Positions 1 through 3,440 of a stretch of DNA of 13,677 nucleotides are shown here, piece after piece. The translations under genes were made by a program, and so were the position numbers. The notes under the pieces are model-generated. The model worked only from the letters and a program-made list of their open reading frames with translations. It was not told the DNA's origin and ran no database searches. This DNA comes from Patescibacteria group bacterium (GTDB lineage Bacteria; Patescibacteriota; Patescibacteriia; Patescibacteriales; XYC2-FULL-47-12). Positions within the stretch are counted from its first letter, which is position 1; the number at the start of each line of letters is the position of its first letter. The DNA lies in assembly GCA_041666885.1 (NCBI GenBank), contig JBAYGB010000009.1, positions 1 through 13,677 on the forward strand, read 5' to 3'.

Positions 1-326
1 AATATGTCTTTGCCTCTTTTTACTTTCTCGTCACTGCCGGCTGAAGTCATCCATAACAGTCCGCCATAAATAAACATTAAAAGCGCAAGCGAACCGACAA
101 TTCCTAAGACGCCGTTAATGACGCGGCCAATTAATGTGGGGATTTCAATATTACTGGTGTTGTTGGTGAGGTGGTTAGTGAGGGAGACGGAGCCGCCAGT
201 AATAGTGCTTGTTTTTGTACCACCACTAAGAGGATCAGTGGGATTTTCTGCTTGCGCGTACTGCAATTGTATAGCCAAAATAGCTAACGACGAAACAATT
301 ACAATGAAAGAAAATATTTTTTTCAT
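1..326 (-). CDS. Partial secreted/membrane protein, pilin-like (TrbC/VirB2 or T4SS-pilin-like architecture); ATG at 326-324, runs off window start
   Basis: Manual translation of minus strand: MKKIFSFIVIVSSLAILAIQLQYAQA|ENPTDPLSGGTKTSTITGGSVSLTNHLTNNTSNIEIPTLIGRVINGVLGIVGSLALLMFIYGGLLWMTSAGSDEKVKRGKDI... Signal peptide with AQA cleavage motif, Gly/Thr-rich linker, one long hydrophobic helix followed by a Lys-rich stretch. No in-frame stop before position 1. Not in the ORF table because it is partial. Confidence 0.4.
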   Translation of the reverse strand, partial: MKKIFSFIVIVSSLAILAIQLQYAQAENPTDPLSGGTKTSTITGGSVSLTNHLTNNTSNIEIPTLIGRVINGVLGIVGSLALLMFIYGGLLWMTSAGSDEKVKRGKDI

Positions 327-349
327 ATTATAGTTTAATTTATATTTAT

Positions 350-358
350 ATTATACCA
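350..358 (-). promoter_or_regulatory. Extended -10 promoter candidate (TGgTATAAT) for the pilin-like gene, 23 nt upstream of its ATG
   Basis: Reverse complement of 350-360 reads TATGGTATAAT. No SD precedes the ATG, so a short or near-leaderless mRNA is implied. The region is AT-rich, so a chance match is possible. Confidence 0.3.
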
Positions 359-360
359 TA

Positions 361-397
361 AAAATAAAAAAAGAGGGAAATGCTTAGCATATCCCTC
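361..397 (-). terminator. Rho-independent terminator for the SPFH/258-aa operon (minus strand)
   Basis: 25-nt near-perfect palindrome GAGGGAAATGCTTAGCATATCCCTC (373-397, 11 of 12 pairs). On the minus strand it is followed by TTTTTTTATTTT (reverse complement of 361-372), 25 nt downstream of the stop of the 422..1198 gene. Confidence 0.6.
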
Positions 398-421
398 ATT
401 AACATAAATTAAAGAACGTGT

Positions 422-1198
422 TTATTTTTTTCGCTCAACAGTGATGGTTGTTATTTCACCGCTAGCGGCTTCAATCCACAAAGTTCCTGTTATGTAGGCG
501 GAAGGGCAAATATTTTCAAATTTTCCATTTTTGAATATTTGCCAATACCCGCCCCAGTGCACACGGAGTTCTTTGTCCGTTTCCAAGCAAATTTTATCGC
601 CTGGAAAAATGATTTCCCCAACTCGGACGGTCGGCACATGATATTGGCGGCTGTCGTTGTCGTCAAATCCTTTGCCGATATAACTTGCCTCAAAGACCGT
701 ATAAGTTTTTGTAGAAAAAATATTAGGCGTAGTTTCTACAAAATTTCTTACAGCGCTCTTTGGATGCGCATCCGGCCAAACAGCGAAAAACAAGACACAT
801 GCTATCGCTATAATTCCTATAATGAAAAGAGGTTTTTTTATATTTTGTAAATTCCATACCCCCTCTTTCCAATTAATAAAACTTATAGCCAAAAAAGCTG
901 AAGTGGCCACTACTGCTCCCATCCATACGCGGCGATTATACATTGTTGCATCACCGGTATAGTAATAATACGCTAATACAAAAGTGCTTACGCAAGAGCA
1001 TATAATCAAGAGTATTTTTATTAAAGTTATTAGCGAAGACATGAGTGTCTTGATTAAAGTTATTAGCGAAGACATGACTGGAATTGGTTGCAGTTGCGGC
1101 GGCTGTGTTGAAGGCTCGGGAGTCGTTTGCGGTTGTGTAGAAGTCGAAGTTACAAGTGTATTTGCTGCCGAATTATTTGCGTGCCTTAGTATTTTCAT
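422..1198 (-). CDS. Membrane protein with Pro/Gln/Thr-rich N-terminus, 3 predicted TM helices and a ~115-aa C-terminal soluble domain; possible NfeD-like partner of the upstream SPFH protein
   Basis: 258-aa ORF with ATG at 1198. Only 3 nt separate it from the stop of the SPFH gene (TAA AAA ATG on the minus strand). Hydrophobic segments LIICSCVSTFVLAYYYY, VWMGAVVATSAFLAISFI and LFIIGIIAIACVLFFAVW. Contains an in-frame 33-bp tandem duplication. Confidence 0.6.
   Translation of the reverse strand: MKILRHANNSAANTLVTSTSTQPQTTPEPSTQPPQLQPIPVMSSLITLIKTLMSSLITLIKILLIICSCVSTFVLAYYYYTGDATMYNRRVWMGAVVATSAFLAISFINWKEGVWNLQNIKKPLFIIGIIAIACVLFFAVWPDAHPKSAVRNFVETTPNIFSTKTYTVFEASYIGKGFDDNDSRQYHVPTVRVGEIIFPGDKICLETDKELRVHWGGYWQIFKNGKFENICPSAYITGTLWIEAASGEITTITVERKK
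1018..1080 (-). repeat. 33-bp in-frame tandem duplication (2 copies) inside the 258-aa gene, encoding MSSLITLIKTL / MSSLITLIKIL
   Basis: ATTAAAGTTATTAGCGAAGACATGA is repeated with 33-nt spacing (1019-1047 and 1052-1080), differing at 1-2 positions. Confidence 0.85.
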
Positions 1199-1201
1199 TT
1201 T

Positions 1202-2803
1202 TTATTCCTCATTTTTTGTACTGTTAAAGCCAGCTCCAAGAGCGGCGCCAGTGGCAGCAAAACCAGGGTGTGATCCTGATTCACTTAAAAAGACATTTGC
1301 TCCGGTTTTTTCTAAACTAAGTAAAAACCGTAGGCGCTGAATGTGTTGTGCTGCTTCTTCTGGGGTTAAGTTACCTTTATTTTGGAGATTTTCCAGTTCT
1401 TTTGCTAAGGCAGTTGCTTTTGTTATTATCGCCTCAGCCTCAGCATTAGCAATAGTTACAATTCCTTTGCCTCTCTCCACTGCCGCTTGCGCGTCATTTA
1501 TTGCCAGTAATAAATTCCGACGCACACCCTTGTCTTCTTCTGAAATGATAATATCAGCAACGGCAATACTAGTTATCTCAACGCCCCACTCCGCGAGTTG
1601 TTTTTCAATGGTGCTTTTTTCGGATTCTTTTGGCACTTGAGCGTCTAATTTTACACCATTTAAAATCCTCTCTTTGCACAAATCTGTTCTTTGGGAGTTT
1701 GCCTCGTTTAATTTTAAGGTGCCGAGATAGCCTCTTAAAACTGAATCAATTTTGCCACGAGTGGCTTTTAAAATATCTTCCGTTCCATAAGTTGCTTTTT
1801 TTGAGTCAATTATTTTGATAAAAGCAGTAGCGATAATTTGCGCTGACCCATCTAAAAAGTCAACTTCATTTTTTAGCATCGGGTTTCCTTGGTCATCAGT
1901 AGTATATAGACCAAGAATTATTTCCCCTTTAAACACTAAATGTTGCAAAATGCAAACATTAAACCATGGAAAAATAAAGTACAAGCCAGACGCTAATGGC
2001 TTACCTATATATTGTCCGAGTTTTTCCACAATTAACTCGTGATTTTGAGGAACGACAACGCATCCTTTCCAAAAAGAAATAATATGAATAACGATAAAAA
2101 CTGTTATTCCCATAAGGATTTCATTGCTCTTTAGCCATTCAATTAATGGATTTAATTTGAATAGCCATGAGTTTTCATCGGGCACGGGAATATAATTTAT
2201 TACTGTTATGGGTGCAACAATCAAAAATAAAATAATCAGAGTAAAAATAATCCAAATGGAACCAGCGACAATTTCTACTCGTACTTTATCTTTACAATGA
2301 AAAAAAATAAGAGCTAATACTGCTAATACGAATCCTGCAGAAAGTATTGTAACTAACGTTTCCATTGGTCCACTAAAAAGTTTACCATAAAAAAAGATAA
2401 CAGCACTTATTAATATTGTTGTAATTAATGTTGTCGTAATACCAAGAAGTGCTTTAAAAATTTTTTCCTTGATTTCTTTTTTAGGACTTTGCAACACGAA
2501 TGTTTTGATAATATTTGTGTTGACAATATTCAAGGAGATATTTATTATCTCTCCCTTTTGTAAATGATTTAAAGGATAGTTATAAATACATCCATTATCA
2601 TCCGTGTCCACAGTTGTGCTAATTACATTTTCTTTGTTCTTTTGGAAAATTATAATTTGGCATTTTTGCCCCCTGTCAAAGTTGGTAATAGCTTGAATAT
2701 TAAGTTGAAAGTCGCCGTCTTTACCGGAAATTTCATATTTAATTTCGGTAAAAATTTCAGGGGCATTTCCTAATGGCTCTTGTATTTCTAGTCCTTTATT
2801 CAT
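1202..2803 (-). CDS. SPFH/band-7 (stomatin/HflKC/flotillin-like) domain protein with an unusual N-terminal ~115-aa extra domain and 4 TM helices
   Basis: 533-aa ORF. Strong SD AGAGGAGAAAAATC precedes ATG 2803. The C-terminal half carries SPFH hallmarks (PQNHELIVEKLGQYIGKPLASGLYFIFPWFNV..., and an Ala/Glu-rich coiled-coil tail AQAAVERGKGIVTIANAEAEAIITKATALAKELENLQ). Four hydrophobic helices lie between residues ~120 and 250. Confidence 0.8.
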   Translation of the reverse strand: MNKGLEIQEPLGNAPEIFTEIKYEISGKDGDFQLNIQAITNFDRGQKCQIIIFQKNKENVISTTVDTDDNGCIYNYPLNHLQKGEIINISLNIVNTNIIKTFVLQSPKKEIKEKIFKALLGITTTLITTILISAVIFFYGKLFSGPMETLVTILSAGFVLAVLALIFFHCKDKVRVEIVAGSIWIIFTLIILFLIVAPITVINYIPVPDENSWLFKLNPLIEWLKSNEILMGITVFIVIHIISFWKGCVVVPQNHELIVEKLGQYIGKPLASGLYFIFPWFNVCILQHLVFKGEIILGLYTTDDQGNPMLKNEVDFLDGSAQIIATAFIKIIDSKKATYGTEDILKATRGKIDSVLRGYLGTLKLNEANSQRTDLCKERILNGVKLDAQVPKESEKSTIEKQLAEWGVEITSIAVADIIISEEDKGVRRNLLLAINDAQAAVERGKGIVTIANAEAEAIITKATALAKELENLQNKGNLTPEEAAQHIQRLRFLLSLEKTGANVFLSESGSHPGFAATGAALGAGFNSTKNEE

Positions 2804-2835
2804 GATTTTTCTCCTCTAACTAACTTTTTTCTAAA

Positions 2836-2918
2836 TTGTCTCGTTCTGCTCCTGATTTGTTCTCTTCAATTACCAAGAAAACCTGTTAACCGAAAAGATC
2901 AGGAACATAATGAGACAA
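2836..2918. promoter_or_regulatory. Imperfect 21-bp inverted repeat (17/21) in the 5' leader of the SPFH gene
   Basis: TTGTCTCGTTCTGCTCCTGAT (2836-2856) versus the reverse complement of ATCAGGAACATAATGAGACAA (2898-2918), flanking a 41-bp loop. Confidence 0.5.
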
Positions 2919-2975
2919 TCTAGATATTTATGAAGGCTTTAATTGCCTTGTTTGTAAGGAGCAAGATAATATTAT

Positions 2976-3004
2976 ATAATAGCATAAATAAAAAAATATG
3001 TCAA
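2976..3004 (-). promoter_or_regulatory. Sigma70-like promoter candidate TTGACA-N17-TATTAT for the SPFH operon
   Basis: On the minus strand, TTGACA (reverse complement of 2999-3004), a 17-nt spacer, then TATTAT (reverse complement of 2976-2981). This would give a ~165-nt leader containing the inverted repeat. The region is AT-rich, so chance is possible. Confidence 0.35.
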
Positions 3005-3050: not shown

Positions 3051-3440
3051 CTATGGCACGTATTTATTAAATTCTTTTTTGGCCGCTATCGTTTCCTTTA
3101 TTTTTGGCAGTTGTTTTAACCGCTTAAATATAATATAAGCCCAAAAACCTTGGCCTATCGCCCACAGTAAAAACCAAAAGCGGGAGGATAAAAACGGCAC
3201 TGATTCATAGCAGAAAAATAACAACAGCGCGCCGATGATTGTGCCGGTCAGCGCGAAGTTATAACCCGAAAGCCAAAGTTTCGCGTATAGCGTTTTTTTG
3301 TTTTGGTTATAAAATTTCCAGGTAACGACAATGGAGGCGAGAAAAATAATGACAATAACTATCAACGCATATTGCCACATTTTAGTTAACGGACCCGGGT
3401 ACAAGCTAAACCACAGTTTAAAAGTGAAGAAGTTGGACAT
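3051..3440 (-). CDS. Small hypothetical membrane protein (about 3 TM helices)
   Basis: 129-aa ORF with ATG at 3440, hydrophobic helices (ALIVIVIIFLASIVVTW, ALTGTIIGALLLFFCY, FWFLLWAIGQGFWAYIIF) and no overlapping alternative. Function unknown. Confidence 0.5.
   Translation of the reverse strand: MSNFFTFKLWFSLYPGPLTKMWQYALIVIVIIFLASIVVTWKFYNQNKKTLYAKLWLSGYNFALTGTIIGALLLFFCYESVPFLSSRFWFLLWAIGQGFWAYIIFKRLKQLPKIKETIAAKKEFNKYVP

Follow-up and report, generated by a model that had tools for sequence, protein, structure and literature searches.

A stretch of 13,677 nucleotides from a Patescibacteria metagenome-assembled genome (contig JBAYGB010000009.1 of assembly GCA_041666885.1), referred to here as the window, carries on its minus strand two adjoining genes for membrane proteins, the first of which encodes an SPFH protein. 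SPFH proteins are universal membrane scaffolds whose clients are mostly unknown, and the only well-established operon partner of the bacterial members is, to our knowledge, NfeD. The locus raises the question of what the second gene encodes and what the pair serves. A 533-aa SPFH open reading frame (ORF; 2803..1202) is followed by a 258-aa membrane-protein ORF (1198..422), and the junction reads GAA TAA AAA ATG, with a spacer of 3 nt. This arrangement is a tightly coupled two-gene membrane operon, in agreement with an original prediction for this DNA, which went on to propose an SPFH/NfeD-like pair. The reading favored here, at a probability of roughly 45%, is that the region represents one copy of a conserved Patescibacteria envelope module, composed of the SPFH–partner operon and a separately transcribed gene for a VirB2-like pilin of the type IV secretion system (T4SS), and that the module is functionally tied to this pilin.

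The conservation of the pair was determined at loci fetched through SPFH family members 28–39% identical to the window protein, about a dozen of 276 cluster representatives being inspected for their neighbors. Ten loci were informative (the window, L004, L007, L008, L009, L010/L011, L012, L013/L014, L017, and L019, by our own numbering), and two further loci ended at the SPFH stop codon and were uninformative. At all ten, a gene on the same strand starts −4 to +21 nt from the SPFH stop, and its product has an N-terminal tail (33–59 aa in the positional homologues), three transmembrane (TM) helices, and a C-terminal domain of about 100 aa. The pairing suggested by the original prediction is therefore kept at every locus that could inform on it. 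To judge from their sequences, the partners evolve fast yet remain linked, with E values of 4e-25 between L004 and L007, 3e-11 between L004 and L008, and 3e-4 between L012 and L013. Hidden Markov models (HMMs) built from the partners of other loci ranked the window partner first among the window ORFs (E = 7e-5 with six sequences and 0.016 with nine, Z = 1000). A conserved SPFH–partner operon with a fixed pilin neighbor is accordingly regarded as highly probable.

It could be argued that the two genes adjoin by chance, or that the partner gene is mis-called or decaying, without functional coupling. The public annotations disagree on its start (206 aa in NCBI and 173 aa in ENA), and the gene has almost no sequence relatives. 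It also contains a 33-bp tandem duplication (1010..1075, minus strand; 30/33 identical, encoding MSSLITLIKTL and MSSLITLIKIL) inside the first TM helix, which extends this helix to about 39 residues, an unusually long hydrophobic segment; the NCBI call begins at the second copy. Against this, the frame is intact, the C-terminal domain shares 67% identity with its counterpart in a second protein, P0003, and the gene (422..1198) has a Shine-Dalgarno (SD) sequence at the right distance, GAGGA at 1210..1206, lying within the end of the SPFH gene 7 nt 5′ of the ATG. This SD corrects the earlier statement that only the first gene carries one. Three observations favor the 258-aa start: this SD, the coupling over 3 nt, and the tails at the N-terminus of the positional homologues. 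Since an equivalent gene is found at the same position in every informative locus, chance adjacency is already contradicted by the conserved neighborhood and is hardly credible.

A third conserved element, which the original prediction had missed, lies just downstream of the partner. The gene at 1..326 of the minus strand, cut by the window end after 108 codons, encodes a VirB2-like T4SS pilin by both Pfam and orthologous group. Despite the truncation it matches PF18895 with an E value of 2.7e-6 and 27.8 bits against a cutoff of 26.6, and full-length orthologues reach 42–49 bits. A PF18895 pilin follows the partner in six of the six loci that extend far enough (the window, L004, L010, L013/14, L017, and L019); in L010, a TPR gene with a duplicated domain sits between partner and pilin. 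Among the adjacent pilins, scores of 60–115 bits against one another, versus 31–57 bits against a second pilin paralogue in L004, define a tight orthologous group, and the L004 orthologue matches TrbC as well. The downstream pilin has a signal peptide together with a hydrophobic helix that closes on an MFIYGG motif. In the truncated window copy, a signal-like N-terminus with AQA at its end and the first of two helices can be recognized; the second helix, present in orthologues, falls past the window end.

The adjacent pilins (window 3–326, L001, L004, L010, L014, L017, and L019) also share a motif, (V/A)S/T-L-x-N/D-P-L, between the signal peptide and the first helix, exemplified by SVSLTNHL, PVSLPDPL, and SVSLSNPL within a highly variable region. 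This motif may be a processing site or the mature N-terminus.

The pilin gene is a transcription unit of its own. An intrinsic terminator (356..397, minus strand), formed by the GC-rich hairpin GAGGGAUAUGCUAAGCAUUUCCCUC (397..373) and a U-run, separates it from the partner gene; the 86-nt stretch folded to a centroid of −14.4 kcal/mol (z = −3.1), which bears out the clean terminator predicted earlier. A terminator between the two genes is present in L001, L004, L010, L013, L017, and L019 as well. An extended −10 element, TATGGTATAAT (350..360, minus strand), is read as the pilin gene's own promoter, and a TATAAT- or TATACT-like −10 occurs at the same place in L001, L004, L010, and L019, with a weaker TATTAT-like element in L013 and none identified in L017. 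Given a terminator at each locus and a −10-like element at most of them, the pilin is separately transcribed and its position is nonetheless fixed.

This separation is what an alternative explanation builds on, namely that the operon encodes a general membrane-microdomain or envelope-stress scaffold, an SPFH protein with an adaptor or client, and that the pilin adjacency is synteny inherited in small, stable genomes. Bacterial SPFH operons are commonly stress-linked, and floT and floA of Bacillus subtilis belong to the sigma-W regulon. The conserved leader hairpins and leader box of the operon, described below, likewise suggest independent and possibly stress-responsive regulation, and other T4SS genes are lacking nearby. 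What argues against a general scaffold is that the flanking genes vary from locus to locus (TrmD/S16, TyrRS, methyltransferase) while the pilin stays the immediate downstream neighbor down to 28% SPFH identity, and that this pilin belongs to one specific orthologous group. We consider a general scaffold with inherited synteny rather unlikely.

Further evidence on the pilin link came from base-level comparison with L001, a contig of a related organism. A block of the window (22..710, minus strand) is shared with L001 (2727–3422 of that contig; blastn, 69% identity over 714 nt) and takes in the partner's C-terminal domain, the terminator with the promoter, and the pilin gene. The homology ends at window position 710, where the TM region gives way to the C-terminal domain, and the position of this end indicates a recombination breakpoint at the domain boundary. 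P0003, encoded at L001/L003, is the sole close relative of the window partner and shares its last ~100 aa. At L001, a different multi-TM protein carries the C-terminal domain as a fusion, and the 3.5-kb contig, which covers 1.7 kb upstream of the domain gene, showed no SPFH gene. Because L001 keeps only domain and pilin, the partner C-terminal domain appears to travel with the pilin, not with the SPFH gene; this too speaks against a general scaffold. The invariant pilin neighbor and the co-segregation of the predicted partner ectodomain with the pilin together suggest that the module serves the VirB2-like pilin, and a pilin-related function is put forward tentatively, at somewhat less than even odds.

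Base composition changes along the same region. The G + C content at third codon positions (GC3) is 0.11–0.32 in the SPFH gene (0.11 in the codons of its first two TM helices), 0.33–0.39 in the partner gene, and 0.43 in the pilin gene, compared with 0.44–0.535 in the surrounding housekeeping genes. These values could be explained if DNA of a lower-GC donor had replaced the 5′ portion of the module, or if the operon had been acquired from such a donor.

The assignment of the first protein to the SPFH family is firm. The gene (1202..2803 including the stop codon, minus strand) encodes a Band_7 domain at aa 250–458 (1430..2056), which matched PF01145 end to end with an E value of 2.1e-11 and 44.6 bits against a cutoff of 23.6. 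Its closest solved relative by sequence is Escherichia coli QmcA (phmmer E = 3.9e-5 in a PDB-sized search). When a 21-member family profile was compared with solved structures, QmcA (1.5e-21) and the archaeal stomatin PH1511 (5.9e-12) ranked ahead of HflC (2.4e-8), HflK, and prohibitin (prohibitin-2, 2e-4); human stomatin scored 1e-6. A word-index search for homologues of the full protein retrieved nothing beyond the query, and an exhaustive HMMER scan retrieved 276 cluster representatives at E ≤ 1e-3 among 1.84 billion, the best being 39% identical. By sequence, the protein belongs to a small and divergent QmcA/stomatin-like clade and is not an ordinary stomatin.

Members of this clade are typically 320–450 aa long. 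Their N-terminus is short and charged and leads into a two-helix hairpin that contains a near-invariant Trp; the SPFH domain comes next, then a helical region, and the protein closes with a Gly-rich tail of the signature GAxFGAGF. Some long members have an N-terminal TM helix and a long coiled coil. The named members are Candidatus Falkowbacteria or "Patescibacteria group bacterium", except for one cluster labelled Nanoarchaeia. That exception concerns L019 (GCA_035506055.1, DATJQC010000093.1), labelled Candidatus Nanoarchaeia archaeon, where the full triad adjoins bacterial-type hrcA, grpE, and a TyrRS gene with an S4 domain. The L019 bin is probably misclassified or contaminated with Patescibacteria DNA.

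The window protein departs from the typical layout at its N-terminus, where the original prediction of an extra beta-rich domain and four helices held up. Hydropathy, loop charges, and the family alignment placed four TM helices within aa 111–247 (2063..2473, minus strand), at about aa 118–140, 146–168, 175–204, and 229–246. In the alignment, the third and fourth helices are the counterpart of the family's two-helix hairpin and the first two are extra; the fourth adjoins the SPFH domain directly and aligns with the N-terminal TM helix of QmcA, so that the membrane anchor usual before the domain is present. Ahead of the helices, aa 1–110 (2474..2803) form a predicted beta-sandwich domain, in which single-sequence AlphaFold2 placed 7–8 beta strands over the first ~105 residues at a predicted local distance difference test score (pLDDT) of 60–77, the whole model being of low confidence (pLDDT 47.2). 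No Pfam match was obtained for this domain, and Foldseek returned weak, generic FN3-, Ig-, and CBM-like matches (E about 2e-3); here as for the partner, Foldseek results on such models serve as weak hints of generic Ig/FN3-like sandwiches and no more. Among the 150 relatives listed of the 276, none has a best-matching stretch that starts before residue 151, so the N-terminal domain and the first two helices have no counterpart among those listed.

Downstream of the SPFH domain lie a helical, coiled-coil-like region and the Gly-rich tail (1205..1429, minus strand). The Ala/Glu-rich segment aa 425–506 was predicted to be helical in the low-confidence model, and G519 and G525 of the tail are invariant or nearly so in the family. 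From the loop charges and the lack of a signal peptide, both the N-terminal domain and the SPFH domain are predicted to be cytoplasmic.

The partner is composed of a 41-aa N-terminal tail, three TM helices within aa 42–146 (hydropathic segments at aa 41–80, 90–110, and 117–146), and a predicted beta-rich C-terminal domain of about 112 aa (aa 147–258), with six strands predicted at low confidence between aa 202 and 255. It matched no Pfam or NCBIfam family and no PDB sequence. A word-index search found the partner itself and one relative, P0003; a search with the alignment of these two C-terminal domains found nothing, and a metagenome scan for the domain found only the L001 organism again. The partner HMM did not match the SPFH ORF, and no similarity was seen between the N-terminal domain of the SPFH protein and the partner C-terminal domains. 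Across the partner family, the loop between the second and third helices is Lys-rich and the long charged tails lack a signal peptide; on these grounds, the N-terminus is predicted to be inside the cell and the C-terminus outside.

At L010 (5112–5945 and 6135–7169; Falkowbacteria), the partner C-terminal domain is duplicated at the end of the TPR protein placed between partner and pilin, and in the stored sequence both copies contain a masked stretch of N at the corresponding position. The N-terminus of the TPR protein resembles a lipoprotein signal peptide, which makes it a probable lipoprotein; this reading fits an extracytoplasmic C-terminal domain in the partner.

Whether the partner could be an extremely diverged NfeD was examined by several routes. 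The NfeD gene lies in the same operon as most stomatin/QmcA-type (SPFH1) members, and NfeD homologues can be barely conserved, as in YuaF with 21% identity (PMC2636767). The clade examined here is nearest to QmcA and archaeal stomatin, the subfamily normally paired with NfeD, and the window shows the gene order and tight coupling of qmcA–ybbJ. About three TM helices followed by a small beta-rich C-terminal domain also resemble the short NfeD proteins. Under this explanation, an OB-fold C-terminal domain would bind the SPFH protein, and the pair would influence the quality control of membrane proteins by way of FtsH-type proteolysis, a role proposed for QmcA–YbbJ.

The searches did not bear this out. 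None of seven partner-family proteins (the window partner and six positional homologues) matched PF01957 or PF24961 at E ≤ 10, whereas control NfeD proteins from L005 and L006 matched PF01957 at 4e-6 and 5e-10, with PF24961, the NfeD membrane domain, weakly present in the L005 protein. These controls are outgroup contigs of Desulfuromonadaceae and Electrothrix, on which the NfeD gene lies upstream of a classical stomatin-like gene. A search of the PDB with the partner-family profile retrieved no NfeD chain, and hhalign gave a probability of 1.2% for the partner family against the two controls, a weak test given that both alignments were shallow. The AlphaFold2 model of the partner, obtained at low confidence from a two-sequence alignment (pLDDT 47.9), gave Ig-like matches and no OB fold in Foldseek. 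The C-terminal domain is also larger, at ~100–120 aa versus 57 profile positions for the NfeD domain, and is common to the probable lipoprotein of L010. Binding of an NfeD domain to its SPFH protein takes place on the cytoplasmic side. From their charge distribution, the L005 and L006 NfeD proteins are read as having the N-terminus out and the C-terminus in, the reverse of the orientation predicted for the partner. The partner thus carries no detectable NfeD signature, and an extremely diverged NfeD is considered improbable. Of the SPFH/NfeD-like pair, the conserved pairing and the layout of TM helices with a C-terminal domain stood, and the NfeD identity did not.

These features separate the system from those already described. 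Like E. coli QmcA–YbbJ and other stomatin-type SPFH1/NfeD operons (PDB 8z5g; PH1511/PH1510), it comprises a membrane-anchored SPFH protein with a helical C-terminal region and a predicted cytoplasmic SPFH domain, followed directly in the operon by a gene for a small membrane protein. Unlike them, it has a partner whose soluble domain is predicted to lie outside the cell, a hairpin anchor (four helices with an Ig-like domain in the window), a Gly-rich tail, large sequence divergence, and a constant pilin neighbor. Band_7_C (PF16200) was not found in the window SPFH protein at E ≤ 1, whereas the classical stomatin-like protein of L005 contains it at 1.4e-24. HflK/HflC and prohibitins share the SPFH fold, and a similar cage architecture is expected here; those proteins assemble as hetero-oligomers from two SPFH paralogues, on the periplasmic or intermembrane-space side, around FtsH/AAA proteases, in contrast to the single SPFH gene, predicted cytoplasmic orientation, and non-SPFH partner of the window. 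The pilin resembles the VirB2/TrbC-like T4SS pilins of Patescibacteria in its PF18895 match, signal peptide, and hydrophobic helix. It differs in that a single, highly conserved orthologue stands next to an SPFH operon, surrounded by housekeeping genes and without a T4SS ATPase in the vicinity. In a published survey, the pilin lies near virB4 in ~58% of pilin-bearing assemblies, often in arrays (PMC12102498).

Under the favored reading, a function can be outlined for the module. The SPFH protein would be anchored by its helical hairpin, with the two extra helices and the Ig-like domain ahead of it in the window copy, and would form an oligomeric ring or cage at the cytoplasmic face, in the manner of QmcA, HflK/C, and stomatin. 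QmcA has been described as a 26-mer (Tan et al., 2024, as cited in PMC12624060). Such a ring might confine a membrane patch that holds the co-translated partner, contacted through its TM helices or its cytoplasmic tail. The partner would then consist of this tail, three TM helices, and a fast-evolving beta-sandwich domain exposed outside the cell, and the two proteins could organize, stabilize, protect, or hand over a membrane pool of the neighboring pilin, or act at the pilus base. Oligomerization, both topologies, physical contact between the SPFH protein and the partner, and any role for the pilin are all inferred.

F-plasmid TraQ, an inner-membrane chaperone for the VirB2-family pilin TraA, offers a likeness in concept only, as a small membrane protein devoted to the insertion or accumulation of pilin in the membrane ahead of pilus assembly; TraQ has no SPFH partner, and no sequence relationship is claimed. 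Links between SPFH proteins and T4SS have been reported elsewhere: T4SS components co-fractionate with SPFH proteins in Agrobacterium, and the Helicobacter pylori SPFH protein HP0248 affects CagA delivery (PMC8656257).

Several points weigh against a functional tie to the pilin. The Agrobacterium SPFH proteins are dispensable for T4SS function (PMC8656257). VirB4, VirB6, or other T4SS genes were not seen in the window or in the fetched loci, and the adjacency of a pilin transcribed separately behind a terminator could reflect old synteny and not shared function. The neighborhoods inspected represent a small share of the clade, and the equivalence of the window partner to the other partners is positional and architectural, with weak support from sequence at the HMM E values given above. 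The topologies of the partner and the SPFH protein rest on hydropathy and the positive-inside rule, and the structures of both were modelled at low confidence (pLDDT 47–48). The second TM helix of the partner is short in some members, L007 and L008; were it not membrane-spanning, the C-terminal domain would be cytoplasmic.

A more specific scheme is speculative and is held to be rather doubtful. In it, an SPFH cage, together with a partner that combines three TM helices and a hypervariable ectodomain, would be dedicated to one conserved VirB2-like pilin, holding or chaperoning the pilin pool or anchoring a pilus for episymbiosis; ectodomain and pilin would recombine as a cassette between lineages, and the operon would be controlled through a structured leader with a conserved box. 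The three-gene module would be previously undescribed. No description of an SPFH–pilin linkage was met in the papers searched; of three papers that combine SPFH with Patescibacteria in their full text, the one listed was unrelated. Two papers report that Patescibacteria widely possess VirB2-like pilins and that these are essential in Southlakia (PMC12102498, PMC10633639), and in a term search neither SPFH nor stomatin appeared in them.

In this clade, the SPFH protein appears to be paired with a lineage-specific protein other than NfeD, and the genomic link to a VirB2-like pilin appears fixed. So far, an SPFH operon with a non-NfeD partner and this link appears restricted to Patescibacteria, the window copy being unusual in its extra Ig-like domain and two extra helices. 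If the link is functional, the pilin would be a directly testable candidate client for a bacterial SPFH cage, and the two membrane proteins would be unrecognized accessory components of the Patescibacteria T4SS/pilus apparatus. In the one species tested, epibiotic life requires this apparatus (PMC10633639), which is poorly understood (PMC12102498). Surface adaptation, a trait relevant to host range, is suggested by the hypervariability of the ectodomain and its cassette-like exchange with the pilin.

The transcription signals of the operon largely agree with those read from the DNA earlier. A sigma-70-type promoter (TTGACA-17 nt-TATTAT, with TG ahead of the −10; 2976..3004, minus strand) matched 11 of 12 positions in a scan, and a promoter of the type TTGAC-N-TATGCTATAAT is also present upstream of the SPFH gene in L004, L007, L013, L017, and L019. 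The SPFH gene has a 5′ untranslated region of about 165 nt and an SD, AGAGGAG, at 2811..2817 of the minus strand. The leader inverted repeat noted previously proved to be a long, near-perfect hairpin of ~95 nt (2830..2924, minus strand), with a minimum free energy of −56.4 kcal/mol and z = −8.8 against dinucleotide shuffles. No Rfam family matched the leader, which gave only the sub-threshold microRNA-like noise typical of long hairpins. Most SPFH leaders elsewhere also fold far more stably than shuffles (for example L004, L007, L008, L009, L012, and L017, with z of about −4 to −7, or −4 to −9.5 over all stable leaders including that of the window); stability was weaker in L010 and L018 (z = −2.5) and L013 (z = −1.5), and there was no excess in L015 (z = −0.2). 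The stable hairpins of different loci are unrelated in sequence, and they may be mRNA-stabilizing or regulatory.

A short box is conserved within these leaders. The exact 11-mer YTTTGACAAWT occurs once per locus in five independent loci (L010, 3947–3957; L012, 3960–3970; L013, 3483–3493; L015, 332–342; L017, 308–318), 40–60 nt 5′ of the SPFH start codon, and the same loci contain no further copy. Variants are found in L004, L007, L008, and the window, where the box reads GAGACAATTTAG (2831..2842, minus strand) and forms the 3′ arm of the long hairpin. In several loci, a small hairpin precedes the box; its stem sequence varies, and an AAAG always pairs with the CTTT of the box. The box was considered as the −35 element of a second promoter and rejected, there being no conserved −10 at 16–18 nt and no room for one in L007. 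It was also compared, informally, with the consensus of CtsR-like and extracytoplasmic function (ECF)/sigma-W-like sites, and the sequences do not fit. With almost nothing known about gene regulation in this phylum, the conserved box may offer a way into it.

The remainder of the window is made up of housekeeping genes, encoding IF-2, RbfA, a DHH phosphoesterase, ClpP, Lgt, S20, HolA, TrxB, and RNase HII. PADLOC matched none of the four proteins examined to an anti-phage defense system. Directly 5′ of the operon promoter lies a gene for a 129-aa membrane protein (3051–3440, minus strand) with about three TM helices and no family match, and no counterpart of it was found beside the module at the other loci fetched. 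Elsewhere, L007, L010, and L019 each have a class-I tRNA synthetase gene (PF00579, Tyr/Trp type) no more than a few kb from the module, and TrmD lies upstream of the module in L008, L012, and L018, accompanied in two of those three by S16 and a KH-domain gene. These tRNA synthetase and TrmD neighborhoods appear to be lineage-specific synteny blocks around an otherwise invariant triad.

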